Shown here in pieces: positions 47,310 to 64,000 of a stretch of DNA of 64,000 nucleotides (positions within the stretch are counted from its first letter, which is position 1; every line of letters starts with the position of its first letter). Below the pieces are notes generated by a model. The model was not told where the DNA came from and ran no database searches. It saw only the letters and a list, made by a program, of their open reading frames with translations. Where the stretch lies: NCBI GenBank assembly GCA_017302795.1, contig JAFLCB010000005.1, forward strand, positions 207,668 to 271,667, given 5' to 3'. The position numbers were made by a program, and so were the translations under genes. The stretch comes from Deltaproteobacteria bacterium. Lineage in GTDB: Bacteria; Bdellovibrionota; Bdellovibrionia; Bdellovibrionales; JAMPXM01.

Positions 47310-47796
47310 TGCTGCATTCCGCCGGGACTGCGGCGCCAGTGAGCGGACAAATTTTCTTCAATGTGAACTGAAGGGGCCGACTCGAGCACGCTGCGAAGAC
47401 GAGCGCCATTCGGTGGGTTTGCATCTGAGGCTCACAGCCGCCAGCGGCACCCGCTTCGGTCGTCAAAATTTGATAGGACACAAAAGACGCTACACCGTTC
47501 GATTTTTCGGCCAACTGTTTTACGGCTGCCGCCTCGCAAGCTGGGCCCTGGTCAGCTCTTCCAAAATATGGGTCACGACGTTCTTGATAGAGGCTCTTCA
47601 AATAGTTTTTCCGCCCCTGCAGCCACGCAAGCTGTTCTTTCGCACTCATGACCTCGGTTTCTTTGACAGCGGTCACGTTTGAAGCTGAATGCGTCGGGCC
47701 TGATTTCTGCGGAGACGAAATACCGACGGGTGTCTGGCAGCCGATTGCAACAAGAGCCCATGCTGACAATAGTAGTTGCGCTCTAGGAATGTTCAT
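47275..47796 (-). CDS. lipoprotein, hypothetical
   Basis: Lipobox SAWALVAIG|C. ATGA overlap with the upstream cytochrome-like gene. Confidence 0.5.
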   Translation of the reverse strand: MNIPRAQLLLSAWALVAIGCQTPVGISSPQKSGPTHSASNVTAVKETEVMSAKEQLAWLQGRKNYLKSLYQERRDPYFGRADQGPACEAAAVKQLAEKSNGVASFVSYQILTTEAGAAGGCEPQMQTHRMALVFAACSSRPLQFTLKKICPLTGAAVPAECSIGEEQINSYCL

Positions 47797-48782: not shown

Positions 48783-49027
48783 AAATGGTAGCAACAATTT
48801 TGAATGTTGAAATACGAGAAGGCCCCTGACGCTTCGCACAAGGGCGAAATGACTCGACTCAATTCGAGACGAAAGGTCCCAGACTTTTGTCAAATTGAAA
48901 TAAATCAGTAGCGACGCGACTTTTTTGCTTCCCCAACTTGGTACGTTCGTTGAATTGTTCTCTCGAACAGAAGCTGACCAGAACGTTTGCAGAAAAACAG
49001 CCCTTGAGGGATTTAACAGGAGTTATC

Positions 49028-50027: not shown

Positions 50028-53000
50028 GTGTTCAAAATATTGAAAATTTGCTCCGCTAGAAACTTCGTCGTCACCTTTGGCGCGGTCCTCTTGTTCCTGA
50101 CTGGATGTACGAAAAAAAATGAAGTCGCACGTGTGATGTTGATTATGCCGAATGCAATCTCAGCAAAACCGACGGTCACTAAAACCAAAAATCCTGTTTC
50201 GCAGTCCGTTTCGGCATCGAGTGAAGACGAGCCCGAGTGGAACACGAGTCTCAACCCTTCGCTGGGATCCGACATCAACTGTTTTGCAGTTTTCGTGGGC
50301 GGGCCGAATCTCGCAGGGAACACTTGTTCAGTTTCAGACAACGGAGCGGCCCGCACGATTGCGTTCGGACCCAATATTGGATTTGTTCCCAGTGGCGCAG
50401 TGATCAAAGTTGATGTTCCAGCTGGCGCCGATCGCGTTTTCCATGTTGTCGGCCTTAAATCCGCTACCGCTGCGGCCTGTGCAAATTATCGCGGAACCAC
50501 CATGGACACGTCCAATTTGTCCGAACCATTTTTGATCGCTTCCCAACGCGCCGACATTCCTGCCGGAGAAAGTTCGCTCAACATCACCGCCTCACTTGAC
50601 GTGAATAAGAAAATCTCAACCTGCAGTTTTGTTCAAAGTGGCGGGACCGGCGGCGGCGGCACGACGATTTCGTTTGGCGATCGCCGCGATGGCAGGATGA
50701 CTTTAACCGGTGGAAACATAGCTAACTTTGATCTCGGAACGGACCCCTACAATTTAACTTTTCCGGGCTACTCGTTTTCACCCAACTCAGGTGGGGTTGC
50801 TCCAACCAAATATTTTAGTTCCAGCGTTCGGGTCACAAATGTCCTGAGAATTGGCGAGAATGCTGGAAAAGCTTTAACGACACCTGCTGTAACTACAAAC
50901 CGATTTGAAGTCGGCGACGAAGTGCTGTGGCATGTGTCTGGCGGCAACGCGAACCCGGGCCCACCCGATGATCCTACTAGAGGAGCCTGCGGTGGCGATC
51001 TTTACCTAGGAAAGTTTGGTTTCGCAAAAATCGCCGGCATTAGCATCGGCGGAACACTCATCATTCTTGATAAGTCGATTTCACAAACACCCGCTTTGGT
51101 AAAAAACGAAAACCTCACGGCCGCGGTCTCAAATCAATCTGGCTTTTGTAGAATTGCTTTAACTCGCGTGCCGAATTTTGAAGAGATCAACGTCGGCACT
51201 GGTAGCACACTGAATTTTTATGGCGTTTCGTATGACTCCGAAAATGGCACCGGTGGCACGCTGGTCATGCGCGCCAAACGAATTGTTGCCGATGGAAGTC
51301 TATTATTAAACGGTTCCGGCCAAGGATACCAAGGTGGCATAGGTGCACTATCTGCCGGTGGAACGGTTTGGGGCTACAACGGACCATTGGGTGGTTCTTC
51401 GTATGGCAGTGGCGGCGGGACTACTGCGACTCTTGGTGGAGGCGGCGGAGCTGGCGGCGGCGAAGGCGGCATGATGGGATCCGCCTTTGGTTCAATGGGC
51501 GGTCTGCCGCTGACTCACGGAATGGAATATTCCTACACTTCCATTTCGGCTGGAACCAATCATACTTGTGGCGTCAGCACGGACGGATCTCTTCGATGTT
51601 TCGGCGATGGATCTTTGGGACAGCTGGGTGCCGGATTTCAGCCTTTTTCAAGAAACGATCCGCAGCAGGTCAGTGGAAATTTGACCTTTAAATCGGCCTC
51701 GAGCGGTCAGAATCATACATGTGCTATTGGTTTTGACGATCGAGCCTATTGCTGGGGTCAAGGTGTCTTCGGAAAATTGGGTGATGGCACAGCGACAAGT
51801 CGGTACTTTCCAACGATGGTTCCAGATGCGACGACCTATTCCCAAATCAGTGCAAGTTCACGCGGCGATCACACTTGCGCCATCACGCGAGACACAAAGA
51901 AACTTCGCTGCTGGGGATTCAACGCGTCTTACCAGATAGGTGACGGATCGACTAATGACCGACCAAGCCCAGTCGATGTCGATTCCGCTACCAATTACAA
52001 AATGGTCTCAGCGGGCGGGAACCACACCTGCGCTATCACCGACGCCGGACAATTGAAATGCTGGGGTGAAAATGCAGAAAGTCAACTGGGCGATGGCACG
52101 ACAAACACACTAACAACGCCGACAATTATCAACGCCGGTACATCTTATAAACGCGTTTCTGCCGGGCAATATCACACATGCGGAATTACCAGCACAGATC
52201 AATTGCGCTGCTGGGGCGCAGGATTCGAAGGACAGCTTGGCGTCGGCGACATCACTGGTCGAACAACACCGACGCCTGTCAACGGTGGCCTCACCTACGG
52301 CGACGTTTCTGTTGGAACGTATCATACCTGTGCCGTGACTCTGGCGAATCAAGTACGTTGCTTTGGTGACAACGCTGCTGGACAAATTGGTGATACATCT
52401 AACACGGACCGGCTCGAGCCGACGCCCATTACTGGGACGAATACATTCGCTAAAGTTTCAGTGGGTGGCTCACATAGCTGTGCAATTACAGTTTCCGGTC
52501 AGCCGATGTGTTGGGGATACGGCACCCTGGGTCAGCTTGGGAACGGTTATACATCGACGCTGAATTATCCATCTAAAGTGCGAAACCAATCTTTGTCATT
52601 GCCGTTTGCCGACAGCAAATCTTATCACGGTGGAGGCGGAGGCGCTGGCAGCACACCGGGTGGCCGCGGCGGCGGTATTGTTCTTTTGATTGCGAAAGAA
52701 ATCCTTGGCTCCGGAAGTGTGCAAGTCTATGCACAGGGTGATAATGGCGTCAGCGGTGCCTATCCATCCGGAGGCGGAGGCGGAGGCGTCATCGGATTGA
52801 TGTCGCGAAGCCTGACCGTTGATTCCATAAGTCTCGACACGAGCGGCGGTGATGGAGTTGGCGGAAGTTTTGAGTCGGCAGGTGGGGGCGGCGGAATTGT
52901 CGACGTTCAGCTTTGCAGTGCAAGTTCAAGCACAACTCCTTCGGCAAATGTCGAAGGTGGCTTTGGTGGATCGCCAGCCCTCAGGCATGGCGCAAATGGT

Positions 53001-53045
53001 TCCGCGAAGCGAACAAACTTCACCGCACTTTGCACAGCGGACTGA
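50028..53045 (+). CDS. large lipoprotein: seven RCC1 (beta-propeller) repeats embedded in a glycine-rich beta-helix-like scaffold
   Basis: GTG start. Lipobox LLFLTG|C. Seven blades are marked by GTNHTCGV, GQNHTCAI, GDHTCAI, GNHTCAI, QYHTCGI, TYHTCAV and GSHSCAI, each followed by ..CWG/CFG.N..GQLGDG. They are flanked by GGGGAGGGEGG and GGGGGAGSTPGGRGGGIVLLIAKE...GGGGGGVIGL...AGGGGGIVDV. Confidence 0.8.
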   Translation: MFKILKICSARNFVVTFGAVLLFLTGCTKKNEVARVMLIMPNAISAKPTVTKTKNPVSQSVSASSEDEPEWNTSLNPSLGSDINCFAVFVGGPNLAGNTCSVSDNGAARTIAFGPNIGFVPSGAVIKVDVPAGADRVFHVVGLKSATAAACANYRGTTMDTSNLSEPFLIASQRADIPAGESSLNITASLDVNKKISTCSFVQSGGTGGGGTTISFGDRRDGRMTLTGGNIANFDLGTDPYNLTFPGYSFSPNSGGVAPTKYFSSSVRVTNVLRIGENAGKALTTPAVTTNRFEVGDEVLWHVSGGNANPGPPDDPTRGACGGDLYLGKFGFAKIAGISIGGTLIILDKSISQTPALVKNENLTAAVSNQSGFCRIALTRVPNFEEINVGTGSTLNFYGVSYDSENGTGGTLVMRAKRIVADGSLLLNGSGQGYQGGIGALSAGGTVWGYNGPLGGSSYGSGGGTTATLGGGGGAGGGEGGMMGSAFGSMGGLPLTHGMEYSYTSISAGTNHTCGVSTDGSLRCFGDGSLGQLGAGFQPFSRNDPQQVSGNLTFKSASSGQNHTCAIGFDDRAYCWGQGVFGKLGDGTATSRYFPTMVPDATTYSQISASSRGDHTCAITRDTKKLRCWGFNASYQIGDGSTNDRPSPVDVDSATNYKMVSAGGNHTCAITDAGQLKCWGENAESQLGDGTTNTLTTPTIINAGTSYKRVSAGQYHTCGITSTDQLRCWGAGFEGQLGVGDITGRTTPTPVNGGLTYGDVSVGTYHTCAVTLANQVRCFGDNAAGQIGDTSNTDRLEPTPITGTNTFAKVSVGGSHSCAITVSGQPMCWGYGTLGQLGNGYTSTLNYPSKVRNQSLSLPFADSKSYHGGGGGAGSTPGGRGGGIVLLIAKEILGSGSVQVYAQGDNGVSGAYPSGGGGGGVIGLMSRSLTVDSISLDTSGGDGVGGSFESAGGGGGIVDVQLCSASSSTTPSANVEGGFGGSPALRHGANGSAKRTNFTALCTAD

Positions 53046-53129: not shown

Positions 53130-54458
53130 ATGACGACAAAGCGAACGAATAAGCCTGCGAAAAAAGCCAAATCCAAAAGCCGCGTGAATCTCGCTCACGA
53201 ATCTGCGACAAAGCGCTCGCGAATGGTTCATGGCATACCCAGCACCACAGCGTGGGAATTTTCCAAACACTTGATTCCACCTATCACTTCGAACACGACG
53301 TTTCGGCTGGGCTCGCTTGATCGTGGCGCACAAGGTTTTATTCAGTTTGGCGCCAATGATGGCACCGACCGCGATCCGATTTTAATTTACGATCGCCTCG
53401 ACGAGCCCAACACTTTACTTTTGGAAGAACAGCTGGCGCAGCTTGAGGGGTCGGAAGCGGCCGTCACTTTTGGCTCAGGCATGGGGGCAATCTCATCCGC
53501 GCTTCTTTCGGTGATGAAATCCGGGCAAAAGATCATTGCCCATCGCAATCTGTACGGGTGCACCTACTCTCTCCTTTCCGATTGGCTTCCGCGATTTGGA
53601 ATTCAATCGACCTTTATCGACGTCAATTCGAAAGAACACCGCCAGCTATTGAACGACAAGAGTGTTCGCGTTCTCTATTTCGAATGTGTTTCCAATCCCA
53701 GTCTTGATCTTGCCGACCTTCCGACAATTATGGCGGAGGTAAAGAAGATCAATCGCAATCGTAGTGAGTCCGATCGGATTATCACAATCGTCGACAATAC
53801 CTTCGCGACACCGTGGGCACTTCGCCCTATCGAGTGGGGTCTGGATATTGTCATTCACAGTTTGACGAAAAATATCGGCGGTTTCGGTACAGAGATGGGG
53901 GGCGCTGCGATGGGCGCGAAAAAGTTTGAGCGCGGCCTCAAGCTTGCGCGGAAGGACTTTGGAGCGATCTTGAATCCGAAATCCGCGTGGGGAATTACCG
54001 TTCAGGGAATTCCCACGTTGGCGATTCGATTTGAAAAGCAGCAAGAGAATGCTTTGGCAGTTGCAAAGTATCTCGAGCGCCATTCGAAAGTAGAATCCGT
54101 GCTCTATCCTGGATTGAAATCCTACAGCCGATTCGCACTCGCAAAGAAATTGCTGCGCACGCCGGAGGGGAAATTTGCCCCAGGCACCATGATATCCTTC
54201 ACCCTCAACGGCGATCTCGATAAGTGTCGGCGATTTGTCGACCACATTGCGAAGAACGGATACTCGATCACCTTGGCTGTGAGCCTCGGGTTGACGAAAA
54301 CCTTGATTGAGGTGCCCGGTTACATGACCCACGCGGCAATCCCCAAAGACAAACAGACGGAATCGGGAATCGACCCAAGATTGATCCGTTTGAGCCTTGG
54401 AATCGAGGATTCGAAAGACATCATCGCGGACCTCGACGCTGCGTTCCGAGCACTTTGA
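53130..54458 (+). CDS. PLP-dependent Cys/Met-metabolism enzyme (cystathionine gamma-synthase / O-acylhomoserine sulfhydrylase / gamma-lyase family)
   Basis: FGSGMGAISSALL..., DNTFATPWALRP, IVIHSLTKNIGGFG (PLP Lys in S-x-T-K), LAVSLGLTKTLIEVP, IRLSLGIED. The first ~30 aa (MTTKRTNKPAKKAKSKSRVNL...) are unusually basic, so the start may instead be Met32 at 53223. Confidence 0.8.
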   Translation: MTTKRTNKPAKKAKSKSRVNLAHESATKRSRMVHGIPSTTAWEFSKHLIPPITSNTTFRLGSLDRGAQGFIQFGANDGTDRDPILIYDRLDEPNTLLLEEQLAQLEGSEAAVTFGSGMGAISSALLSVMKSGQKIIAHRNLYGCTYSLLSDWLPRFGIQSTFIDVNSKEHRQLLNDKSVRVLYFECVSNPSLDLADLPTIMAEVKKINRNRSESDRIITIVDNTFATPWALRPIEWGLDIVIHSLTKNIGGFGTEMGGAAMGAKKFERGLKLARKDFGAILNPKSAWGITVQGIPTLAIRFEKQQENALAVAKYLERHSKVESVLYPGLKSYSRFALAKKLLRTPEGKFAPGTMISFTLNGDLDKCRRFVDHIAKNGYSITLAVSLGLTKTLIEVPGYMTHAAIPKDKQTESGIDPRLIRLSLGIEDSKDIIADLDAAFRAL

Positions 54459-54495
54459 TTGGACACAAAGACCCATGGCTTGATCTGATCAGGCC

Positions 54496-55584
54496 ATGTA
54501 TTCACTAAAAAAATCTTTTTCGATTTTCGGGGCCGACTTCAACGAATCACAAGCTGCATGGACGGCGCTTGGGATATCGAAAAAATCAATCGACACGGCC
54601 GATCTTGCGGTCATCGGTTCGAAGTTTGGATTTTTCAAAAAGCCCGATCGTCCAATTGCTGCATCGATTTTTGTCACTAAGGGCGGCGTATTAAAAACCT
54701 CCCTTACCTTGAATCTTGCGCGCACTGCTGCACTTCACGGTTTGAAAGTCTGCGTCGTCGGCCTCGATATGCAGGGCGACATTACTCAGGCGCTGGGCAA
54801 TGAAGGCCCCGACGAAAACGAATCGCTTGAAGAAGCACTTCGCACTCTGAACTCGCTCCGCGGTCTTTCGGATTTTTTCGTTGGCCAATCGAAACTGGAA
54901 GATATCATCGTCGACACAGAAGTACCGGGACTTTCCTTTATTCCCGAAACACCGGAACTGGTGGCGCTTGATCAAAGCTTGCTCACGCGCAATCGCAGGG
55001 AATATTGGCTTTTAGAAAATGTCGTCAATCCCTTGAAGCAGCGTTTTGATTTAATTTTGATGGATTGTTCGCCCAACTGGAACCGTCTTATCAACAACGC
55101 CTTAGTGGCGAGCGACGTCTTACTTTCACCAGTAGAATGTAAGATCAATAATTTTAGAAACCTTCGAACGTTCAGAGCACTGATCGCCGAATATCGACGA
55201 GATCTGCGTCTCGAGTTTGATCACGTCTTTATTCCTACCCGTGTTGTCGGTTCGCGACGCCTTTCTCGCGAAATTTTTGATTGGTATCGACAGAATCTTA
55301 AAAACTGCACGCGCATGTCGATTAGGGAAAGTGTTCATGGCGAAGAGGCTACTGCACTTCGACTTTCGATTGCTGAGCATTCGCCCGCTTCTGCTCCAGC
55401 GGCTGAAATGCGATTGCTGCTTGCAGAAATCGGTGACGCGCTTGGAATCTCTATCAAGTCAGACGACCGACTTTTGCTTGATCGAGCGAAGCTTGGTGGT
55501 TCGCCGAGTGGTTCGCCGGATCTTGACTCAGCAGGTATGAGATCCCCCGAAACTGTAACTCAAATGTCACAAATGGAGACCTAA
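54496..55584 (+). CDS. ParA/MinD-family ATPase-like protein with an atypical P-loop
   Basis: ASIFVTKGGVLKTSLTLNLAR...VCVVGLDMQGD...LILMDCSPNWN is the ParA fold order, but the deviant Walker A reads KGGVLKT instead of KGGVGKT. There is an extra ~60-aa N-terminal segment. Confidence 0.6.
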   Translation: MYSLKKSFSIFGADFNESQAAWTALGISKKSIDTADLAVIGSKFGFFKKPDRPIAASIFVTKGGVLKTSLTLNLARTAALHGLKVCVVGLDMQGDITQALGNEGPDENESLEEALRTLNSLRGLSDFFVGQSKLEDIIVDTEVPGLSFIPETPELVALDQSLLTRNRREYWLLENVVNPLKQRFDLILMDCSPNWNRLINNALVASDVLLSPVECKINNFRNLRTFRALIAEYRRDLRLEFDHVFIPTRVVGSRRLSREIFDWYRQNLKNCTRMSIRESVHGEEATALRLSIAEHSPASAPAAEMRLLLAEIGDALGISIKSDDRLLLDRAKLGGSPSGSPDLDSAGMRSPETVTQMSQMET

Positions 55585-55585
55585 G

Positions 55586-56035
55586 ATGGCGATAGGACTT
55601 TCAAATGTTGAAACTAGAAAAGTGAAAAAGGCGTCCGTTAAGAAAAGTGACGAACCCAAACCATTGGCAAAGTCACGGATGGCGTCGACGTTGATAGAAA
55701 ATTCCGCGAGAGTGATGGACACGCTTTCGAATGAAACCAACGCCCAGCCTTCGGCCGTGCGAACAGCCGAGCCGGCACCAATCAAAGAACGAAAGCACAA
55801 GGCGTCTTCATCGGCGGAACTCAACTCGTTGTGGCTTGAATGGTCCAACCGAGTGGCGGGGGTCGAGCCCGAAAGCGTTACTTTACTTCTAGCCCGCCAG
55901 TGGATGGAAATCGAACGCTATGTCTTTGATCTCGTAACGGAGAATGTCCTTCGAGAACTTCGTAAAACAGCTTTTGGAGCAAAGGTCGTTTCTAAAATTG
56001 AAAAGCGAGTCGCCAGGACTCGCTTTTCTTTGTAG
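55586..56035 (+). CDS. hypothetical protein, partner of the ParA-like gene
   Basis: The ATG lies 1 nt after the ParA-like stop. 149 aa with a basic, disordered N-half and a helical C-half. No motif. Confidence 0.45.
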   Translation: MAIGLSNVETRKVKKASVKKSDEPKPLAKSRMASTLIENSARVMDTLSNETNAQPSAVRTAEPAPIKERKHKASSSAELNSLWLEWSNRVAGVEPESVTLLLARQWMEIERYVFDLVTENVLRELRKTAFGAKVVSKIEKRVARTRFSL

Positions 56036-56053: not shown

Positions 56054-56791
56054 TTAGAAATAGATGTAGAATCCACCCTGAACGACAAGCCCAGAGGTAT
56101 TTGAAGAAACGCCACCCGACGATGTCGATGCGTATCGATAAACGGCATCACCGCGAATCGCGACGGAATTTCCTAGAGGAAACCACTTCAATTGTCCACC
56201 GCCCTGGAAGGTCATTACTGTTCCAGAGACTTCTGCGTTTCCAACCGTTGACGACAAACTGCCAAACTTGCCTTCAGCACCTAGGCCGTAAACAAGTTCA
56301 GTGCCTGGCGTATTCGCAACGAGGTTGTAGTCGAAAAATCCACCCGCCTCAATAACTCGAGAGCTGCTGCCGGTCGCAGATACGTAGGTCAAAGTGCCTA
56401 ACCCGCCGTATTCCATGTCGCCAGCGTTCCAGCCATATCGAGCTGTAACACCAAGGCCGGTCGTGCTCGACGAGCTTCCTGATGTCGAACGATTTTCAAG
56501 CTCCGCAGATCCACCGATAATCATCGCGCGCGAATCGCTGCCGCCGCCACCGCCCATCGAGCTTTCGCCGCCACCGCCCAAATCAATCATTTGACCCACG
56601 CGTGGACGAGCATCATCTGGAAACTGAACGATCGCCTTTTTTCCAGAGACTTTAACAACTTTCGCTTGCTGTGCTGAAGCTACAGAAGACAAGCCCACGG
56701 CGGTGAAGCCCACGGTCAACCCTGTTAAAATCATAAAATTAAAGTAACGTGCGGCGTTTCGACCCGCGCGTGATGTCGAGCTAACTTCCAT
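56054..56791 (-). CDS. small outer-membrane beta-barrel protein
   Basis: Signal peptide (LTVGFTAVGLSSVASA|QQ), a Gly-rich linker, alternating strands, and the canonical terminal ...VVQGGFYIYF. Confidence 0.65.
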   Translation of the reverse strand: MEVSSTSRAGRNAARYFNFMILTGLTVGFTAVGLSSVASAQQAKVVKVSGKKAIVQFPDDARPRVGQMIDLGGGGESSMGGGGGSDSRAMIIGGSAELENRSTSGSSSSTTGLGVTARYGWNAGDMEYGGLGTLTYVSATGSSSRVIEAGGFFDYNLVANTPGTELVYGLGAEGKFGSLSSTVGNAEVSGTVMTFQGGGQLKWFPLGNSVAIRGDAVYRYASTSSGGVSSNTSGLVVQGGFYIYF

Positions 56792-56888: not shown

Positions 56889-57137
56889 CTATGTTCCGCT
56901 TGGTCGGCGAGGTGTCTTGCTCATCACCAATTCGGCGATCGCGACCAACGTTAGAAATTTCTGGCTGGCGATTTCATCAAGGCCAAATTCTATAGAAAAC
57001 TTTTTTTCCAGCCGAACGGCGAGTACAATCAAATCCAAGGAAGCAAGCTCCAAACCATCTCGCCAATTGATTCCCGCTTCCTCAATACATGCGCTTACCA
57101 GCTTAATAGTTTCTTCGACGCTCAAATCACCTGACAT
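56889..57137 (-). CDS. acyl/peptidyl carrier protein (DltC/AlmF-like)
   Basis: 82 aa. The phosphopantetheine-site context GLELASLDLIVLAVRLEKKF aligns with the (D)SLD..ELV..LE helix-2 motif of carrier proteins. Confidence 0.6.
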   Translation of the reverse strand: MSGDLSVEETIKLVSACIEEAGINWRDGLELASLDLIVLAVRLEKKFSIEFGLDEIASQKFLTLVAIAELVMSKTPRRPSGT

Positions 57138-57189
57138 TTTTCCAAACTATCACTTTAACCGCAGTGAAACAACAGGGCACAATTAGTAG

Positions 57190-57828
57190 ATGGGTGAGAC
57201 GGGTACTTCGTGTGAAACCGAATTGTATTTTCAGCGCTTAAAAGCATTGCGCCAAGTTGTTCTATCGACTGCCACCCCTAGCGCCGATGTAGCGGCAACC
57301 ACCGCCAGGGAACTGGTGTCCAAGTATGTTGAGTTGATGTCCCGGACTGACGAAGGACCACGTCCGAATGTGGTATCGAGGCAGGCGGAGTTTTCGGGTG
57401 ACGTTCACGGCCTGTGGCTTTTGAATGCGGAAGCTCGATACTTTTGCATGGTCTCAAAAGAATACGGCCGCTCCTCGGCGCAAATTTGCCATATCCTAAA
57501 TTTGGTGATCAAAAAGTTCCCTGCTGGAATCACTATCAGTGAACCAGAATCAAATTCACTTGTACCAGTGCTGCTATTGAATCTCGCGCGTATTCAGCGC
57601 GAGGCAGGCGAATTAGTTTCCGCCCGGTTTCGCTCCGCCCAGCTGGCCGAATTTATCGGAAATCCGTCCAAAATATTTAACCTCACGTCTTTTCCGCTAG
57701 AAGTTTCTTCGCAAGCCGGAGAAATCGGCGACTGGTGCCGTCGAAATCTAACTAACTCGAGTCGCCACTATATTCTACGCAAACTAGTAAATTTCGACCA
57801 ATCTTTGGCCCAAAGAAAGCATGAATAA
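57190..57828 (+). CDS. hypothetical cytoplasmic protein, translationally coupled to the adenylating enzyme
   Basis: 212 aa with no TM helix and no motif. Its last 8 nt overlap the ATG (57821) of the AMP-ligase gene. Confidence 0.5.
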   Translation: MGETGTSCETELYFQRLKALRQVVLSTATPSADVAATTARELVSKYVELMSRTDEGPRPNVVSRQAEFSGDVHGLWLLNAEARYFCMVSKEYGRSSAQICHILNLVIKKFPAGITISEPESNSLVPVLLLNLARIQREAGELVSARFRSAQLAEFIGNPSKIFNLTSFPLEVSSQAGEIGDWCRRNLTNSSRHYILRKLVNFDQSLAQRKHE

Positions 57829-59287
57829 AAACCTACTAATCCGACTTTTCGAAAACAGAATATCAATGGGCAGCCAAAGCGCCCTTCTCGATTTTGATTC
57901 AGGTTGCGACTTAACCTGGTCAGAGATTTGGGCGACCAGTCTATCGGTGTCTCAGAAAGCGCGAGAAGCGGCGCCAGACAGGAAGTACTTCGTCTGCGTG
58001 ACAAAAGACCCGACACTTTCCTGTCTTTTTTTATTCGGTTCTTGGCTAAGCAACGTGACTCCGATTTTGGTCAACCCAAATTTCACCAGGTCGGAAATTG
58101 AAAATGTTGAAGCTTCTTTGTGCGCCCAGGGAGAAGGCAGCCATTCTTGGCTATGTGACGAGACCACAAATGAAAAAATCAAGACCGCCCGCCGAGACCG
58201 CAGCGCGCCCATCGTAAAATTTGATATCGCCTCTTTGAAGAACAAACCGGCTGAAGCCGAAGTGGCGAGGGAGAGCCTCCTTCCTCTGACCTCGAAAGAA
58301 ATAGATGCGCTGGGTTTGTTCACTTCAGGATCGACGCAAATACCAAAACTCGTGAAGTTCTCTCATCACAATCTGCTCCGATCAGCGGAGATCGAAATTG
58401 AAAACGACAAACGTCTTCAACAGACGACTGTCGTGAATCTTCGACCGCACTTTACATCTGGTGGATGTAACTCGCTTTGGCCGTGGGTATACGGCGGAGG
58501 GCGAATGATATTTTCGAACGCGGCTGCGCAGCTTCCTAATGCGAGAATTATCCGAAACCTTCTGTTCAAAACAAAGCCAGAGCTGCTGATCTGTTCACCG
58601 AGCATGCTGAACGTCCTCGCCGAATCCAATGACGGCCATCCACTGTCGGATGTGCCGCTGCCAACCTACTTTGGAGGCATGTCGGTCAGCGAAACCGTTT
58701 TAACTTCACTGGTTTCGATGGGTCTATGTCCCTGGATGAGATACGGAATGACAGAAGTTGGTCACATCATTTCCAAAATCGATTTAACCCAAGGTCCGCC
58801 CTATCCAGAAAAAAGCGATGTCGGACAGGTCTACCGGGGCCTTCACGCGAAGTCTGACTCCGGTTATCTCGTATTTCGGGGCGACGGAATTGCGAGGTCA
58901 TGTGTGGCCAAGGGGGCCGACTTTGTCAGTGACGATCGAGGTGAAGTAAGAGGTGCTCGGATAATTCTTCGCGGGAGAGAAAACAAAATCGCTAACGTTA
59001 ACGGGTTTCGATTTCCAATCGCTGAGGTTCAAAGGGCCATGGAGTCTCACCGTGAACTTAAACATGTTCTCGCGCTAGCGATTCCAAATGGGTTCAAAGG
59101 CGACGAAATTGTTGTTTTCTTTCAGCCGAACGAGCCAGGCGGAGTTGACGAAATTGCACTGCGACTATCTATGCAAAATCTGTTGGTCAACTTCAAGCGG
59201 CCAAACAGGTACATCCTGGTTCATGCTTGGCCCTTCACTGCAAACGGAAAAGTAAACCAAGCAGCTTTGATGGATCTACTAAAGTAG
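57821..59287 (+). CDS. stand-alone adenylate-forming enzyme (ANL superfamily; DltA/AlmE-like carrier-protein ligase)
   Basis: Core motifs: A3 LFTSGSTQIPKLV, A5 YGMTEVG, A7 SDDRG, A8 LRGRENKIANVNGFRFPIAEV, A10 NGKVNQAAL. No condensation or thioesterase domain. Confidence 0.8.
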   Translation: MNKNLLIRLFENRISMGSQSALLDFDSGCDLTWSEIWATSLSVSQKAREAAPDRKYFVCVTKDPTLSCLFLFGSWLSNVTPILVNPNFTRSEIENVEASLCAQGEGSHSWLCDETTNEKIKTARRDRSAPIVKFDIASLKNKPAEAEVARESLLPLTSKEIDALGLFTSGSTQIPKLVKFSHHNLLRSAEIEIENDKRLQQTTVVNLRPHFTSGGCNSLWPWVYGGGRMIFSNAAAQLPNARIIRNLLFKTKPELLICSPSMLNVLAESNDGHPLSDVPLPTYFGGMSVSETVLTSLVSMGLCPWMRYGMTEVGHIISKIDLTQGPPYPEKSDVGQVYRGLHAKSDSGYLVFRGDGIARSCVAKGADFVSDDRGEVRGARIILRGRENKIANVNGFRFPIAEVQRAMESHRELKHVLALAIPNGFKGDEIVVFFQPNEPGGVDEIALRLSMQNLLVNFKRPNRYILVHAWPFTANGKVNQAALMDLLK

Positions 59288-60409
59288 TTCGATCTTCCCG
59301 CCTCCGGGCGTATCGACCATATAGTGAGGCAAGTTGATTTCAGTTTTCCAGTCTATACCGCTGCGTAGTTCTCTGATCATCTTCACATCATCGGCGATCA
59401 GAGTTCTAAAGTGCGACGACCCAAAAGTAAGGTCACAATGATAGGCATAGTAAGGCTGTACGCCCATCAGCAGAAGCTTTTGATTCAAAAGTCTTAGCAC
59501 TTCGGGCCGATCGTTGATTCCCTTAAGTATGACCGTGTGGTTGTTAACGACACAGCCCGCATTCCGCAGCATGCGGCACGATCGTAGCGCTTCGTTCGAG
59601 CATTCGTCAGGATGATTGAAGTGCGTATGAATATAGAGTGGCTGATATTTCTTTAAAACTTCCAGCAGCGAGTCCGTAACACGAAACGGTAGCGTAACAA
59701 GGTTTCGAGTTCCCAGGCGAACGATCTCAACATGTTCGATGCTGCGGGCTTTTTCGAGAAGCTCGTCCAACTGTTTATCAGCAAACGAGAAGATGTCACC
59801 GCCACTAAGAATAATTTCACGCAGACTTGGATTTTTTCGAATGTGGTCTAACGCATCGTTAATCTGCTTTTGTTGCAGGGCAGACCCCGCATCTGACACT
59901 TTTCTTTTTCGGGTACAGAAGCGGCAATACATTGCACAGTGATGCGTTGTGTACAGCATCGCACGGTCAGGATACCGATGCGTCAACCCGGGAACCGGCA
60001 TCATTTGGTCTTCTTTGGGAAAATCTCTAAGTTCGTATTCAAGTTGAATATTTTCGGCGCTCGATGGCATTCCCTGCCGGCGAATAGGGCAATCGGGATT
60101 CTCGTGATCCATCAGCGAAAAATAATAGGGAGTAATTGAAAAGTTGAAGTCAGTCTGAGTACGCCGGATGTCCTCGGCCAGCGCGAAAATGTCTAAGCCT
60201 TTGACGTTTTCTAGTTTCAACGCAGCTTCTAGCTTTTCGATCGAATCAATCCTGTTTCGTAACTGCCACGGCCACGAGGACCAATCTTGCGCAGATACGT
60301 CCTGCCAGATCTTTAGAGGTCTGGTTGATCGGAATTCGAGTTTCTCGCTCATTGTCCCATTATCCCGCATTTTCGAAAGTGCGCAAATTAAAGTCCGACT
60401 AGCGAACAA
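59279..60409 (-). CDS. kamA: lysine 2,3-aminomutase family radical-SAM/PLP enzyme (KamA/EpmB-like), apparently intact
   Basis: HRYPDRAMLYTTHHCAMYCRFCTRKRK (CxxxCxxC), SGGDIF (SAM site), HTHFNHPDE, GINDRPEV, YHCDLTFGSSHFRT and VDTPGGGK. Both Asp that bind the lysine epsilon-amine and the PLP-Lys of C. subterminale KamA (aligned from memory) are retained. The start is TTG 60409, or ATG 60370 or 60352. Confidence 0.85.
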   Translation of the reverse strand: MFASRTLICALSKMRDNGTMSEKLEFRSTRPLKIWQDVSAQDWSSWPWQLRNRIDSIEKLEAALKLENVKGLDIFALAEDIRRTQTDFNFSITPYYFSLMDHENPDCPIRRQGMPSSAENIQLEYELRDFPKEDQMMPVPGLTHRYPDRAMLYTTHHCAMYCRFCTRKRKVSDAGSALQQKQINDALDHIRKNPSLREIILSGGDIFSFADKQLDELLEKARSIEHVEIVRLGTRNLVTLPFRVTDSLLEVLKKYQPLYIHTHFNHPDECSNEALRSCRMLRNAGCVVNNHTVILKGINDRPEVLRLLNQKLLLMGVQPYYAYHCDLTFGSSHFRTLIADDVKMIRELRSGIDWKTEINLPHYMVDTPGGGKIELL

Positions 60410-61673
60410 GTCCTAGTACCGATTTATAGATTCCAAGAATGATGATCGTAGAAATCCATCGTACATAGTCCAGGACCGTCCACCGCCCGATTGATTTTTC
60501 ATGTTGATGCTCGCCAAGGCGGCCCTGCCCAGGAATCAATAAAAACACAATCAAGAATCCAATCATTGCCAAGCCCGTCACAGGTGGACGTTCTAAATCT
60601 GCTCTGTACCCAACTTGGACTCCAACAAGAACCGCATAAGAAGCTATGGCCGCAATAAAGTAGGACATTGTAGTCGAGTATCCACTGCGAACGAGCCAAA
60701 GTCCCAATGGCCGGACGCCAACATCGACGACGAAATCTCGCACGTAGGAGCTGTGGCGTCGCAGGTAGTCCAGCGGCGAACGCGCCAATAACGGCAAATG
60801 CATATCATATTTCAACTCGTAACCAAGAAACCGGCCTAGCGAGATTTGGAAAGCCATTCCCGCCGTTTGCTGAAAATAAATGATCACTAGCCAGTACAAA
60901 CCCAGTGCCAAGTGAACAGCAGCAAGGTCAACACCGGTTTTTCCCCCCGGAAGAAAAAAAAGATTTCGCCAAAAATACTCGTTAGCCAAACTAAAAATAC
61001 CCATCAAAAAAATTCCCCACAACCCCATTCCAAGGATTCTGAGGCTCTCGGCGGGTATTAACGAACGGCCTTGGGCTTTCGATTTGTGGAAATACGAGTA
61101 TTGCACGTATTGAATTTGTCCTGGCAGTAGAAAAAAAATCGGACAGAACAGGTATTCCAAAAACTCGATTAGGCCGTGTTCCTGAAATCTCAAATAGACT
61201 CGATGATCAACAATCCAACTTAAAAATCGCATCGCAAAGCAGGTTTTAAAGAGAATCAAAACTGTCAGCTGTGGCCCCGTCAATTGAGCTTTCCATGCAT
61301 AGAGAATCAATGGAATATACGCGAGCAGAATCCCCACTGACACGGCTACCCCCACCGGCAGCTGACCTTGGGCGCGACGGCGGGCGAAATAAAACAACGA
61401 GATCGAAACAAATATGAACGCGAGTGCAGCCATCGCATTCATTGAGACCAGCACGAAACTAAGCAAAGACAAAGCAACACCCGTCGTCCGACGTGCCGCC
61501 AAAGTTTGATTCGGTATAATTTCAGGAAGAAATCGAATGATCAGGACAACAAGTGGCAGAACCGCAATTGTCATCGGAAACGAGCTGAAAGTCGTAGCTG
61601 ATGAAATAGATCGAAAGTGAAAACTTTCACCGCAAATGTATGCAACACTGGCGGCGGCCGCAGAAAGCAACAA
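60399..61673 (-). CDS. divergent MBOAT-family membrane protein (DltB/AlgI-like), copy 1
   Basis: About 10 TM helices. LIEFLEYLFCPIFFLLPGQI parallels the MBOAT F.EF.SY.FFFP....GPI block. ...LGRFLGYELKYDMHLPLLARSPLDYLRRHSSYVRDF parallels FG...P.NF..P..A.S...FWRRWH.SLS.W.RDY, with the catalytic-type His retained. The N-terminus is uncertain (TTG 61673 or ATG 61574). Confidence 0.6.
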   Translation of the reverse strand: MLLSAAAASVAYICGESFHFRSISSATTFSSFPMTIAVLPLVVLIIRFLPEIIPNQTLAARRTTGVALSLLSFVLVSMNAMAALAFIFVSISLFYFARRRAQGQLPVGVAVSVGILLAYIPLILYAWKAQLTGPQLTVLILFKTCFAMRFLSWIVDHRVYLRFQEHGLIEFLEYLFCPIFFLLPGQIQYVQYSYFHKSKAQGRSLIPAESLRILGMGLWGIFLMGIFSLANEYFWRNLFFLPGGKTGVDLAAVHLALGLYWLVIIYFQQTAGMAFQISLGRFLGYELKYDMHLPLLARSPLDYLRRHSSYVRDFVVDVGVRPLGLWLVRSGYSTTMSYFIAAIASYAVLVGVQVGYRADLERPPVTGLAMIGFLIVFLLIPGQGRLGEHQHEKSIGRWTVLDYVRWISTIIILGIYKSVLGLVR

Positions 61674-61707
61674 GAGGGCAAAGATTGAAACAGCGGGCGA
61701 AAAAATC

Positions 61708-62484
61708 CTAGCGCTCGCGATAAGAAAACTCCTGATTTCGATAGTTCCTGAAGATATAGGTTCCGTCTTTGTAGGACTTTATATATTCCGGAACTAGCGC
61801 TGTACCTGCTTCTTGCGCCAAAGATACATGAAATGAAACAGCCAAGCCGGATGTCCACCCCCGTAGTGTCTCTAAAATTTCAATTCCTTTTTCTTGTTTC
61901 ACAAAAAGCCCTGCCTTTTTAGAAATCGAGCACTCTGAAAACAAAACATAAGGCCGAACCCTCATCATCAACAGCTTGTGATTGAGGTCCATGATTGTCT
62001 TAGGATCATCATTGATGCCGGCCAGCAAGGTGGTCTGGTTCGAAATAACAAAGCCGGCGCTCATCAATCGGTCGCAAGCGACCAGCGCCTCACTGGTGCA
62101 TTCGGCCGGATGCTGGAAACCAGAAATCAAGGTCTTTTGCTCGAGGGGTGGGTTGTTGAAATCCAAAGTCGCCACACACATCGGGCTTGTCTGCAACAAT
62201 CGGCTTTTAAAACAGCTAACTCCGACAACTTCACAGGGAACTTTTTCGAAAGACGTCGACGCTTCCGCGAGGAAACCTCTGTATTCTCTACCCTTCGCGG
62301 TAAGTGACTGAATCTCATTGAGCAGCGAAAAACCGTATGGGCTATCAAAATCCCAATCAGCTTCTTTTGTTGGCTGTGCATGCCTTTGCCAATTTGAATC
62401 TACCCAGGTCTCTTCCGAAACAGATTCAAAGGATTCGTGCCGAATCAGCGGATGGAATTTCTTCGAGATAGATGGATAGACCAT
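61708..62484 (-). CDS. degenerate KamA-like protein lacking the radical-SAM cluster motif, SAM site and PLP lysine
   Basis: The C-terminal half is homologous to the KamA next door: FQHPAECTSEALVACDRLMSAGFVISNQTTLLAGINDDPKTIMDLNHKLLMMRVRPY versus FNHPDECSNEALRSCRMLRNAGCVVNNHTVILKGINDRPEVLRLLNQKLLLMGVQPY. There is no CxxxCxxC and no GGD/E; CDL is replaced by ECSI and VDTPGGGK by VSLAQEAG. The start is taken at ATG 62484. Confidence 0.6.
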   Translation of the reverse strand: MVYPSISKKFHPLIRHESFESVSEETWVDSNWQRHAQPTKEADWDFDSPYGFSLLNEIQSLTAKGREYRGFLAEASTSFEKVPCEVVGVSCFKSRLLQTSPMCVATLDFNNPPLEQKTLISGFQHPAECTSEALVACDRLMSAGFVISNQTTLLAGINDDPKTIMDLNHKLLMMRVRPYVLFSECSISKKAGLFVKQEKGIEILETLRGWTSGLAVSFHVSLAQEAGTALVPEYIKSYKDGTYIFRNYRNQEFSYRER

Positions 62485-62522
62485 CGCTAGATGATATTGC
62501 GACAGAGGATCTAAATGAAGTC

Positions 62523-63734
62523 CTAAAAACCAGAACGAATAGAAAATATCACCGAGTATCCTGCGATCAAAATTAGGAAGGTCAGAACTCTCGAACGTAC
62601 CGAGCCATCGCCAAAAGCCCAGTTTCGAAAACCACGAGGAATGATTTCCGGTAGCACTGTCATGCAAAAGAAGATTCCAGTAATCACGAGTCCAACCGCC
62701 GTGCTCCGATCGTTCCTATAAGGCTGGAACCCGATCTGGGTCAGCGTGAAGGCCGAAAAGATCGCCATCAGTACGATGAGGCGCCCCCAGATGAGCCCTG
62801 AATTTCTTCGGAACGCCGCCGTCATCAGGGGCTTCACTAGAATTTCAAGGATGAACTCTCGAACATAAAAATGCATTCGTTTCCAGTAGTCCCCGGGTGA
62901 AGTCGCACGCCAGGGTGCGTTCATATCTAATGAAATCTGAAATCCGCTGCAGCTTAAAAAGGAAATTTGAACCATCACATTCGCCGCGTGAAAGATAATG
63001 GCTGTCGCGACGCTTAGAATACCGCCCACCACACTGGAGCCAACGAATTCAAAAGCTGAGAGATTTTTAAAATAGGCCGTCTGCAAAAAACCATAAGCCA
63101 CAAGAAGAGTCAGCCCAAAGGTGAAGGTAGCAACTGTTTTATTGTGAGTCTTTATCTCGTTCATTTTCCCAGAAAAGAACCGACTTGGCGTTAAAACATT
63201 GAGATCGTTTGTGAACATAAAAAATGCTGGGTGGAAAAAGAATTCCACAAATTGATCTAAACTGTAGCTTCGTCCGTAAACTCGAACTGACACAATCCAA
63301 GCAAATAGCTTGATTCCCCAAGAAGTATGAATCATCAACACCAGCCATGCAAACGGCGCTGATTTGTCGATATAGAACGATCGATTCGCCCAAAACAGTA
63401 GCGGAATCAGAATCAGAATCAGTAGCGCGGTCAACCACCTTGCCTGCGGCTTCAGCTGAGCCACAAAGAATGCCACTGCAAGAATTAGAAACCCTGCAAT
63501 CAACGAATAGAGGCTTTGAACGAAAATGAAAGGTCCAAGCAGATACAACCAATGACGGACTTTGATAGGAAGAACTGACGAGGCCAGCAGAAAGACCGGA
63601 ATCGTAGCTAGCGCCGATAGCACTTCAGCTGAATCCAAGCTGAAGGCGGAAAAGTACTTTAGTTCTTTCGGTAAAAGAAAAAAGAGCGTCCAAAGTACTA
63701 CAGCTTGAAAAAGTAGAAACTGGCGACTAGTCAT
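62523..63734 (-). CDS. divergent MBOAT-family membrane protein (DltB/AlgI-like), copy 2
   Basis: A paralogue of 60399..61673: LDQFVEFFFHPAFFMFTN and ...GFQISLDMNAPWRATSPGDYWKRMHFYVREF, with the same His-containing block. About 10 TM helices. ATG at 63734. Confidence 0.6.
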   Translation of the reverse strand: MTSRQFLLFQAVVLWTLFFLLPKELKYFSAFSLDSAEVLSALATIPVFLLASSVLPIKVRHWLYLLGPFIFVQSLYSLIAGFLILAVAFFVAQLKPQARWLTALLILILIPLLFWANRSFYIDKSAPFAWLVLMIHTSWGIKLFAWIVSVRVYGRSYSLDQFVEFFFHPAFFMFTNDLNVLTPSRFFSGKMNEIKTHNKTVATFTFGLTLLVAYGFLQTAYFKNLSAFEFVGSSVVGGILSVATAIIFHAANVMVQISFLSCSGFQISLDMNAPWRATSPGDYWKRMHFYVREFILEILVKPLMTAAFRRNSGLIWGRLIVLMAIFSAFTLTQIGFQPYRNDRSTAVGLVITGIFFCMTVLPEIIPRGFRNWAFGDGSVRSRVLTFLILIAGYSVIFSIRSGF

Positions 63735-63782
63735 CGCACTTCCACTCTCTAGAGATGCCTATGGCCTTATTTTTTGAAACCA

Positions 63783-63995
63783 TCATTCCGCGGACTTCAT
63801 ATTCACAGAGTTTTTTTCAATATATCGGAGCCCTGACGCGGTAAGCAGATTTAGTTCGCAGACGTCGTTGCCGTAGACCAGGCTGGCGTCTGCAACAACT
63901 GTGTATTTTATTAATCGCGAAAGTTTAATGCAGTCGTCGTCACTTTTAAACTCGATTTGATACTGCGATGTTTTTCGTGCCTGAGACGAAAACAT
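63783..63995 (-). CDS. small hypothetical protein at the head of the MBOAT/KamA gene string (may extend beyond the window)
   Basis: 70 aa from the ATG at 63995. No in-frame stop lies between that ATG and the window edge, so the ORF could be longer. No motif. Confidence 0.3.
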   Translation of the reverse strand: MFSSQARKTSQYQIEFKSDDDCIKLSRLIKYTVVADASLVYGNDVCELNLLTASGLRYIEKNSVNMKSAE

Positions 63996-64000
63996 ACTAA

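Follow-up and report, generated by a model that had tools for sequence, protein, structure and literature searches.

A stretch of 64,000 nucleotides from a member of the Bdellovibrionota (contig JAFLCB010000005.1; the whole stretch is called the window, and positions are counted from its first letter) ends in a gene cluster that brings together a 2,3-aminomutase of the KamA family, stand-alone adenylating enzymes of the ANL type, small carrier proteins and membrane proteins of the MBOAT acyltransferase fold. The layout of the cluster is Dlt-like, running from ANL enzyme to carrier protein to MBOAT to an acyl-tyrosine, with or without an SGNH protein, and yet the cluster lies outside the Dlt equivalog families, and no described system matches it. 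With a probability of about 50%, the cluster makes beta- or omega-amino acids tethered to carrier proteins and hands them to MBOAT-type acyltransferases for transfer to an extracytoplasmic acceptor. We infer the substrates, the acceptor and the role of two MBOAT-like proteins that lack the catalytic histidine from the genes themselves. A preliminary description of the window had proposed a beta-lysylation system of the cell envelope, and this reading is partly supported.

Only the distal half of a cluster of about 17 kb lies in the window; the cluster runs past the window end at 64000. A JGI contig from a near-identical strain extends the sequence beyond that position; it is L001 among the compared loci and contigs, which are numbered L001, L004-L014, L018 and L019. 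Upstream of the MBOAT-like genes, and in the same orientation, L001 encodes a carrier protein of 86 residues (carrier 1), an ANL enzyme of 510 residues (ANL1), a decarboxylase of 407 residues, a canonical MBOAT of 443 residues (the true MBOAT) and unk417, a polytopic membrane protein with a weak MauE-like match and orthologues in L005, L007, L008 and L012. Further upstream are genes for a GNAT protein, an HDAC-family protein and a PF00487 'fatty-acid desaturase'. The unk417 gene (L001 6539-7792, corresponding to window 65036-63783) spans the window edge, such that its last 70 residues are the open reading frame (ORF) at 63783-63995. L001 differs from the window by a few amino acids, for example DDDCIKLSRLIKY versus DDDCLKLSRFIKY when window 63783-63995 is compared to L001 7580-7792, and by one ANL2 residue; it therefore represents a closely related strain rather than the same one. 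The ORFs listed in the preliminary description are all present, and the overlap of 9 bp reported for the 3' ends of the convergent ANL and kamA genes is real (59279-59287). Its six genes do form a conserved cluster, but only half of the system had been seen: the gene for a 212-residue protein was omitted, and the canonical MBOAT, carrier 1, ANL1, the BtrK-like decarboxylase and the GNAT, HDAC-like and GntB-like proteins, absent from that account, are all encoded beyond the window.

The full gene set is kept together, with shuffled order and orientation, in L004-L008, L011-L013, L018 and L019 (about 10 loci, annotated by BLAST). The recurring set comprises carrier 1, ANL1, the decarboxylase, the true MBOAT, MBOAT-like B, half-KamA, MBOAT-like A, KamA, the 212-residue protein with ANL2, carrier 2, the GNAT and HDAC-like proteins and the PF00487 protein. 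Given that the same genes are found in about 10 independent loci, the cluster is more than a chance grouping, and its two modules of ANL enzyme and carrier remain linked through several rearrangements. The co-occurrence of kamA, MBOAT, ANL and carrier genes that had been suggested as a check is thus found in these Bdellovibrionota loci, and also in L014, described below. A scan of one genome per species, covering 185,579 species, found the MBOAT-like family in seven loci only, all in Bdellovibrionota metagenome-assembled genomes (MAGs), and a metagenome scan with family patterns added one short locus. The cluster is so far known almost only from predatory Bdellovibrionota.

The KamA-family protein passes the TIGR00238 family model with 296 bits (cutoff 199) and aligns to the structure of lysine 2,3-aminomutase (LAM; 2A5H) at 7e-92. 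In this alignment it retains C125/C129/C132, R134, D293 and D330, and Arg134, Asp293 and Asp330 are also present in five orthologues, confirming the two lysine-type Asp residues noted at the outset. In lysine 2,3-aminomutase, Asp293 and Asp330 bind the epsilon-ammonium group and Arg134 binds the carboxylate; in glutamate 2,3-aminomutases the two Asp are reportedly replaced by Lys and Asn, a finding said to be that of Ruzicka and Frey in 2007. The conserved substrate residues point to lysine as the substrate of the cluster KamA, with arginine also possible. The pyridoxal 5'-phosphate (PLP) lysine, equivalent to K337, lies four residues before the stop, and all cluster-type KamAs end four residues past it (...DTPGGGKIEL[LVF]), having lost the C-terminal tail of LAM. 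These enzymes form a clade of 343-363 residues without LAM_C that share 60-69% identity across loci. The next tier consists of full-length KamAs at 47-51% identity, and three loci with full-length KamAs in Bdellovibrionota-type assemblies have unrelated contexts.

EpmB is likewise a short KamA without the LAM C-terminal domain, and KamA could be an EpmB-like supplier of beta-lysine for elongation factor P (EF-P). This explanation is scarcely credible: the cluster KamA resembles EpmB in length and matches its model TIGR03821 weakly (196 bits, cutoff 369), but its score against the AblA model, 361 bits, is far higher, and neither efp nor epmA (class II lysyl-tRNA synthetase-like) lies beside the cluster KamA clade or its nearest full-length relatives in any locus inspected. 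EF-P modification was rejected because efp and epmA are not nearby in any locus, a check that the preliminary description had itself put forward.

The cluster also encodes the degenerate KamA first described, termed half-KamA, which matches KamA by BLASTP at 7e-18 and matches only the C-terminal parts of KamA models. Alignment of seven orthologues with KamA and 2A5H shows that half-KamA lacks about 90 residues around the CxxxCxxC motif, D293, D330 and the PLP Lys. What it has kept are the W.WQ/TPYY motifs near its N-terminus, the second half of the barrel and a C-terminal tail of the LAM type (PNYI....Y.FRNY). Judged from these alignments, the losses of KamA and half-KamA are complementary; the full-length KamA of L014 (2502-3647) has both the catalytic sites and the C-terminal tail. 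MBOAT-like A and MBOAT-like B are each encoded directly upstream of a KamA-type gene, in the repeated order MBOAT-like B, half-KamA, MBOAT-like A, KamA. The complementary degeneration and the repeated gene order suggest that an MBOAT-like/KamA pair was tandemly duplicated, and that KamA and half-KamA may act as a heteromer.

MBOAT-like A and B are paralogues (23% identity, E 4e-14), and both are kept in most loci. Neither matches an MBOAT or DltB model of Pfam or NCBIfam even at E 0.1, nor any PDB sequence at E 10. A homologue search on the MBOAT-like protein returned 21 relatives, none with a Pfam domain, and an exhaustive profile search returned a tight family of about 30 representatives with a weak tail that includes PF03062 proteins. 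An AlphaFold2 model of MBOAT-like A, generated from the family alignment, has a mean predicted local distance difference test score (pLDDT) of 87 and a predicted template-modelling score (pTM) of 0.84. When the model was compared to the PDB with Foldseek, the top 23 matches were all MBOATs, with DltB first (6bug/8jem; E 6e-6, TM-score 0.66-0.68), followed by PORCN, HHAT, DGAT1, ACAT1 and LPCAT3. In profile comparison with hhalign, the A/B family and true MBOATs are homologous at 97-98% probability (E 1e-11 to 1e-13). The MBOAT fold and homology of the two proteins are therefore established by structure prediction, which had been proposed as a check and gave DltB as the top match at a TM-score of 0.66, and by profile comparison; for B, the evidence for the fold is its paralogy with the modelled A.

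Two motifs mark MBOAT-like A, FCPIFF.PGQIQ and KYDMH.PLLARSP.DYLRRHSSYVRD. The latter is the most conserved block of the A/B family, in which D257, M258, P261, A264 and P267 are invariant in 22 sequences that share 22-77% identity with the window protein; such conservation makes a function likely, though not necessarily canonical catalysis. MBOAT-like B, in an alignment of seven orthologues, has an invariant DM..PW.A..P.DYW.RMH..VR and FH..N and a conserved C-terminus, ...R.GF. The secondary Asn/His block of MBOATs (..FW.RWH/N.S...W.RDY..) is present as DYLRRHSSYVRDF in A and DYWKRMHFYVREF in B, aligned to DIWRRWHISLVSWLRDF, with the His offset by one residue between A and B. The 'His block' of the preliminary description, RRH in A and RMH in B, is this secondary block (RRWH/N).

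A single assembly, Bdellovibrio sp. MAG_58, carries three MBOAT-like A paralogues, in L009, L010 and L011. L011 is a full cluster. The paralogue in L009 stands with an SGNH-like protein, a true MBOAT and an HDAC gene, without KamA, and that in L010 precedes a Cys-rich protein of 501 residues with a prepilin-type N-terminus.

The genes of the first module lie beyond the window edge. Carrier 1 has a canonical LDSIG motif, and the order carrier 1-ANL1-decarboxylase is found in L001, L004, L005, L007 and L011. The best solved relatives of ANL1 are VinN and the beta-aminoacyl-acyl carrier protein (ACP) synthetases of macrolactam pathways, and ANL1 keeps the Asp of motif A4. The decarboxylase, a PLP enzyme of the Orn/diaminopimelate (DAP)/Arg type, has BtrK as its best solved relative (2j66/7ru7; 189 bits versus at most 118 for DAP decarboxylases). 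Assignment as the DAP decarboxylase LysA was rejected, given that the BtrK score is far higher; BtrK is the L-glutamyl-[BtrI ACP] decarboxylase. In the vicenistatin pathway, VinN loads 3-methylaspartate on the ACP VinL, which is followed by decarboxylation of the bound residue by VinO, a PLP enzyme that requires the thioester to be in place beforehand (PMC11284099). The homologies of ANL1 and the decarboxylase make module 1 a VinN/VinL/VinO- or BtrJ/I/K-like unit, which is best read as yielding a beta-alanyl- or gamma-aminobutyryl (GABA)-type thioester.

The true MBOAT matches PF03062 and scores 111 bits against the DltB model. Its orthologues end in FIYLRY, FVYMRY, FIYMRF, FIYMRL or LLYIRT, and the L014 protein ends in FIYMGL. 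In DltX and PatA, the Tyr of the FxYxxF acyl-shuttle motif is acylated, and the acyl group is then handed over to an SGNH partner (PMC12148441). Transmembrane (TM)-anchored proteins with GDS...DxxH motifs are encoded in L004, L007, L009, L011 and L014. The window was correctly described as having no DltD- or DltX-like gene; this does not extend to the system as a whole, since an SGNH-like gene is found in related loci and the shuttle motif is built into the true MBOAT.

ANL2, the adenylating enzyme of the window, matches the PF00501 AMP-binding family (7.8e-21, 74.7 bits), and the core motifs attributed to it earlier hold up: the A3 P-loop, A5 (MRYGMTE), the A7 Asp, A8 and the A10 Lys are kept in six orthologues. 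The ANL2 clade has the signature NLRPHFTSGG.N.LWP together with MRYGMTE. The 212-residue protein encoded beside it (unk212) matches no family in the Pfam and NCBIfam models and has three homologues in 5.8 billion proteins; its AlphaFold2 model, with a pLDDT of 44, is too low in confidence for use. The ANL2 ORFs of L004 and L011, of 698 and 696 residues, have an N-terminal part that is unk212-like, and the ANL2 of L019 (643 residues) has no unk212 match. The assignment of carrier 2 as a carrier protein is supported by its Ser ('A/S-S-L'), which is invariant in five orthologues, but its PP-binding score of 17.7 bits falls under the cutoff of 20.8, and several ACP families match weakly. One of these weak matches raised a link to the ornithine-lipid proteins OlsH and OlsI, which was rejected: OlsH is GH3-like and OlsI an alpha/beta hydrolase, and both are missing. 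A carrier2-type gene is also found in L013, L014, L018 and L019. ANL2 always adjoins KamA and carrier 2 in the loci, and from this invariant gene linkage alone ANL2 is proposed to load the KamA product, beta-lysine, on carrier 2.

A divergent arrangement is found in L014, a metagenomic contig of 41% GC content (50% in the window). Its full-length KamA, among the nearest to the cluster KamA, is 51% identical to it and keeps Asp293, Asp330 and the PLP Lys. To one side of this gene are a PF03062 MBOAT, a carrier1-type protein and an ANL1-type gene; to the other are an ANL2-type enzyme, a TM-anchored GDSL/SGNH protein, a B12-radical-S-adenosylmethionine (SAM) enzyme and a carrier2-type protein. 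The ANL2-type enzyme is 30% identical to ANL2, with the signature NLRP.HTSGG.N.LWP, and has a C-terminal helical domain weakly similar to unk212. The arrangement in L014 supports the coupling of KamA to a Dlt-type pathway independently of the MBOAT-like paralogues. The B12-binding radical-SAM gene (6903-8489) lies between the SGNH-like and carrier2-type genes, which hints that the acyl group may be methylated in the L014 system.

Three further proteins of the set would tailor the amino acid. The GNAT gene is a conserved member of the cluster; about 9 kb separate it from KamA in L001, where the two are on opposite strands. The HDAC-like protein has a Tat-like (twin-arginine; SRRQLL), Tat-lipoprotein or TM-anchor N-terminus in all four readable orthologues, and its gene directly adjoins the true MBOAT gene in L007, L009, L018 and L019. 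Given these export-type N-termini, it is probably an exported deacetylase. A periplasmic HDAC-like enzyme is unusual. The combination of GNAT and an exported HDAC-like protein suggests transient N-acetyl protection of a side-chain amine, much as the macrolactam and butirosin pathways use alanyl and gamma-glutamyl groups for protection. The PF00487 protein is closest to GntB (106 bits, compared to 44 bits for DesB and lipid desaturases), the membrane L-arginine gamma-hydroxylase of the guanitoxin pathway; a role as lipid desaturase was rejected on account of this relationship, which argues for hydroxylation of a basic amino acid rather than lipid chemistry.

A pathway can be proposed from these parts. 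KamA, probably as a heteromer with half-KamA, would convert L-lysine to beta-lysine, and ANL2 with the 212-residue domain would adenylate the product and load it on carrier 2. In parallel, the VinN-like ANL1 would attach an acidic amino acid of the Asp/Glu type to carrier 1 via its side-chain carboxyl, and decarboxylation by the BtrK/VinO-like enzyme would leave a beta-alanyl- or GABA-type thioester on the carrier, as the closest characterised homologues of this enzyme suggest. Passage of the acyl group through the membrane would be the task of the true MBOAT, with an acyl-Tyr on its FxYxxF tail as intermediate, and in some loci the group might be passed on to the TM-anchored SGNH-like partner. 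For the acyl group that stems from KamA, MBOAT-like A and B could provide a dedicated conduit or transferase, which is the weakest step of the scheme. The GNAT would acetylate the side-chain amine in the cytoplasm and the HDAC-like protein would remove the acetyl group in the periplasm, while a hydroxyl group may be added to the basic amino acid by the GntB-like membrane enzyme. The net result would be an envelope molecule decorated with cationic beta-aminoacyl groups. Put at its most specific, the proposal is one of (hydroxy-)beta-lysyl and beta-alanyl/GABA-type tailoring of the envelope in predators, with secondary-metabolite chemistry wired to MBOAT export, joined by a His-less MBOAT subfamily that works with KamA and pseudo-KamA by a catalytic solution of its own; in this full form it is tentative, and its chances are clearly below even.

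Several observations weigh against the proposed pathway. All of the compared loci come from uncultured MAGs or metagenomes. The cluster KamA falls under each substrate-specific equivalog cutoff, at 361 versus 525 bits for lysine (AblA), 341 versus 650 for glutamate and 285 versus 600 for arginine. ANL2 is highly divergent: no characterised protein is close to it, and its top PDB match, to oxalyl-CoA synthetase, has an E-value of 1e-11. Enzymes that adenylate amino acids bind the substrate amino group with the A4 Asp. At this position (Asp235 of GrsA), ANL2 has the Ser of an invariant 'FTSGG' where ANL1 has the Asp of 'SHDVG', in a region in which the two proteins align weakly, at 25-30% identity where matched. 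Given this Ser and the lack of a close characterised relative, the substrate of ANL2 might not be an amino acid. The SGNH-like proteins have weak family matches (TesA 1.6e-4, Lipase_GDSL_2 0.009) and motifs that were read by eye, and the window, L001 and L005 yielded no SGNH-like gene. The GNAT, finally, has no match to the AblB family.

This last result bears as well on a different use of beta-lysine. KamA and the GNAT could together make the compatible solute N-epsilon-acetyl-beta-lysine, as AblA and AblB do, with the MBOAT, ANL and carrier genes as unrelated O-acylation neighbours. KamA does score best against the AblA model and the GNAT is conserved, but the missing AblB match and the distance between the two genes in L001, on opposite strands, argue otherwise. 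KamA is always flanked by ANL2 and carrier 2 and usually by MBOAT-like A, the modules stay linked when the loci rearrange, and an exported deacetylase would make no sense for a cytoplasmic osmolyte, so that a compatible solute is a very improbable product.

The remaining objections concern the MBOAT-like proteins. In an alignment of 10 true MBOATs, the catalytic His (His336 of DltB, in the 'G.WH' block) is the invariant H291. The 22-sequence A/B alignment has no conserved His downstream of the RRH/RMH block, and in the global mode of hhalign the 18-residue 'GMWH...' segment with the catalytic His falls opposite a gap, in a region of low confidence. The FxYxxF shuttle motif is absent from both A and B. 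The description of the two as MBOAT proteins thus stands for the fold, with DltB as closest relative, but not for the Pfam family or the catalytic His, and the lack of a conserved catalytic His makes them a divergent, His-less subfamily of the MBOAT fold. In L019, KamA, ANL2 and carrier 2 directly adjoin the PF00487-HDAC-MBOAT-GNAT genes, and MBOAT-like A and B are not nearby. MBOAT-like A and B may therefore be accessory or non-catalytic.

Taken further, the canonical MBOAT alone would be catalytic and A and B would be pseudo-enzymes, acting as scaffold, chaperone or regulator, such that the Dlt-like reading would hold via a gene outside the window. The missing His and the gapped segment, the lack of an FxYxxF tail and of a Pfam match, the L019 arrangement with a true MBOAT and neither A nor B, and the parallel with the degeneration of half-KamA all fit this explanation. 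Yet the active-site-equivalent block (KYDMH.PLLARSP.DYLRRHSSY) is the most conserved part of the family, B has invariant His and Asn residues of its own (FH..N, RMH) and a conserved C-terminal R.GF, and most loci retain both paralogues; an entirely non-catalytic pair is unlikely.

The export of aminoacyl groups to an envelope acceptor must also be weighed against a small-molecule or aminolipid pathway free of polyketide synthase (PKS) and nonribosomal peptide synthetase genes. Here a VinM-like ANL2 would acylate the amine of aminoacyl-carrier 1, and MBOAT-fold enzymes would transfer the product to a lipid or small acceptor, giving a secreted or membrane metabolite, such as a predation factor. 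ANL1 and the decarboxylase are indeed nearest to antibiotic enzymes (VinN, beta-aminoacyl-ACP synthetases and BtrK), and macrolactam pathways likewise join a KamA-family aminomutase, a PLP decarboxylase, two ANL enzymes and an ACP (PMC11284099). The tailoring genes, namely the GntB-like hydroxylase, the GNAT and, in L014, the B12-radical-SAM enzyme, would suit such a pathway, and several loci have no SGNH gene. However, no locus has a gene for a condensation domain, thioesterase, PKS or VinK-type acyltransferase. The true MBOAT has the shuttle motif typical of envelope-polymer acylation, a putative SGNH-like partner is encoded in L004, L007, L009, L011 and L014, and the deacetylase is probably exported. 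A small-molecule product is therefore doubtful, although it deserves more weight than the other alternatives.

The features of the window and the tailoring genes of the compared loci are collected in Table 1. The outer-membrane protein (OMP)-like gene next to carrier 2 is present as described, but its synteny does not reach beyond close relatives: orthologues are found in L005 and L006 only, where they adjoin MBOAT-like B rather than the carrier. A Pfam search with the protein gave no match. It was rejected as core component or acceptor because of this limited synteny and different position, and probably stands outside the core set. The interval from the RCC1 gene to the cluster (53130-56035) contains genes for a PLP enzyme of Cys/Met metabolism, an ATPase of the ParA/CbiA type and a 149-residue protein, which show 78-83% identity and synteny in L005 and L006 only.

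Table 1. Positions of the cluster genes in the window, and of two tailoring genes in the compared loci.
Feature	Sequence	Position	Strand	Remark
OMP-like gene, 245 residues	window	56054..56791	-	signal peptide, Gly/Ser-rich linker, C-terminal ...GGFYIYF
Carrier protein 2, 82 residues, ACP/peptidyl carrier protein-like	window	56889..57137	-	putative phosphopantetheine Ser in 'LASLDL'
212-residue all-helical protein (unk212), predicted ANL2 accessory domain	window	57190..57828	+	fused to ANL2 in other loci
ANL2, stand-alone adenylating enzyme, 488 residues	window	57821..59287	+	alternative start 57866; AMP-binding match
KamA-family radical-SAM/PLP 2,3-aminomutase, 357 residues	window	59279..60352	-	ORF to 60409; gene callers start at 60352
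MBOAT-like A, 391 residues	window	60399..61574	-	ORF to 61673; gene callers start at 61574
Half-KamA, putative pseudoenzyme, 258 residues	window	61708..62484	-	matches C-terminal parts of KamA models
MBOAT-like B, 403 residues	window	62523..63734	-	paralogue of MBOAT-like A
unk417, C-terminal end of a 417-residue polytopic membrane protein	window	63783..64000	-	gene cut by window edge
HDAC-family gene	L001; L007; L009; L012	469-1674; 17419-18468; 14055-15122; 14396-15394
PF00487 gene	L001; L007; L012; L018; L019	1-405; 18519-19466; 2955-3884; 18173-19108; 13371-14255

About 8 kb upstream of the cluster (45139-47309 and 47793-48893) are two arylsulfotransferase (ASST)-like beta-propeller genes and a cytochrome P460-like gene. 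Homologues of both ASST-like genes are found within the L012 cluster, and one adjoins unk417 in L007; the two ASST-like genes and the cytochrome P460-like gene may be part of the system. Elsewhere in the window, 50028-53045 encodes a protein of 1005 residues whose N-terminus resembles a signal peptide and which has seven RCC1 repeats (RCC1-like domain, 7e-75) between long Gly-rich flanks. The gene at 40151-43117, for a protein of 988 residues that combines fibronectin-III, Ig-like and cadherin-like domains, follows a gene with a weak LysM match (38874-40154). Three tRNA genes, Asn-GTT (29554-29629), Arg-ACG (31801-31877) and Ser-GCT (32690-32782), lie in an otherwise ordinary chromosomal stretch. 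A promoter and terminator scan gave counts under the shuffle expectation and was uninformative.

Among the known systems close to the cluster is Dlt of Firmicutes (DltA, DltC, DltB, DltX and DltD). The two share a stand-alone ANL enzyme, a carrier of about 80 residues, a DltB-like MBOAT, the FxYxxF motif and a predicted cationic aminoacyl ester outside the membrane; some of the related loci also encode a putative SGNH-like protein with a TM anchor. Unlike Dlt, the cluster is found in diderm Bdellovibrionota, has two ANL/carrier modules and would use beta- or omega-amino acids that KamA and a carrier-dependent decarboxylase produce in situ. As in PatA and AlgI, the MBOAT itself includes the shuttle motif, which in Dlt is carried on the DltX microprotein, and the cluster adds the two His-less MBOAT-fold paralogues, the GNAT, the probably exported HDAC-like deacetylase and the GntB-like hydroxylase. 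Every Dlt equivalog cutoff tried was missed: ANL2 scores 35 bits against 560, ANL1 113 against 560, carrier 1 18-20 against 52-68 and the true MBOAT 111 against 375.

The macrolactam starter cassettes (VinN/VinL/VinO/VinM/VinJ; IdnL1-L7) and butirosin BtrI/BtrJ/BtrK resemble the cluster in that ANL1 and the decarboxylase are nearest to VinN and BtrK and that the ACPs stand alone. The macrolactam cassettes also include a KamA-family aminomutase (IdnL4, for incednine) and follow a similar logic of amine protection and deprotection. In contrast to both, the cluster has no PKS, VinK-type acyltransferase or peptidase, its output would go to MBOATs rather than to an assembly line, and the predicted protecting group is acetyl (GNAT/HDAC-like) rather than alanyl or gamma-glutamyl. 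The cluster KamA has lysine-type residues, unlike the glutamate-type macrolactam aminomutases.

The O-acetylation systems PatA/PatB, AlgI/AlgJ/AlgX and WssH share with the cluster an MBOAT of about 440 residues with an FxYxxF tail and, in some loci, a putative periplasmic SGNH partner. Their donor is acetyl-CoA, with no carrier or ANL enzyme, whereas the carriers and ANL enzymes of the cluster point to aminoacyl donors. AlmEFG, which adds glycine to Vibrio lipid A, is similar as a Gram-negative envelope modification that uses a DltA-like ANL enzyme and a carrier; AlmG, however, is an LpxL-type acyltransferase of the cytoplasmic face, AlmEFG has no MBOAT and the cluster has no AlmG-like gene. 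With LAM/KamA, AblA (paired with AblB) and EpmB (paired with EpmA), the cluster KamA shares the radical-SAM/PLP core, the Cys triad, Arg134, Asp293, Asp330 and the PLP Lys. It differs from these in its shortened C-terminus, in its pairing with a dead paralogue in which the tail is still present, and in its gene neighbours, which encode ANL enzymes, carriers and MBOATs, where the others are linked to ablB, epmA/efp or genes of lysine fermentation. Literature searches returned nothing that pairs an MBOAT with an aminomutase, DltB with beta-lysine, an MBOAT/SGNH system with a carrier and adenylation, or an exosortase with a decarboxylase, ACP and ligase, and a search for Bdellovibrio with beta-lysine returned an unrelated topic only. 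There is a substantial chance that the pairing of a His-less MBOAT with KamA is new in its own right.

To our knowledge, carrier-protein-dependent MBOAT acylation is known essentially from Dlt alone, a system that is a target for anti-virulence drugs. If the proposed pathway is true, the MBOAT acyl shuttle would be a general export route for activated amino acids, beyond acetate and D-alanine, and the cluster would be distinguished by its beta-amino acids, its two donor modules, possible steps of protection and deprotection, and its occurrence in a diderm predator. The complementary degeneration of KamA and half-KamA and the conserved His-less paralogues of the MBOAT fold are of interest for enzymology. 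In evolutionary terms, beta-amino-acid machinery of the antibiotic type (VinN/VinO/BtrK) would be tied to primary envelope biology. Beta-aminoacyl esters have a greater chemical stability than their alpha-aminoacyl counterparts, and decoration with beta-aminoacyl groups could give the predator a durable cationic surface, with a bearing on resistance to cationic peptides and on the surface contacts between prey and predator.

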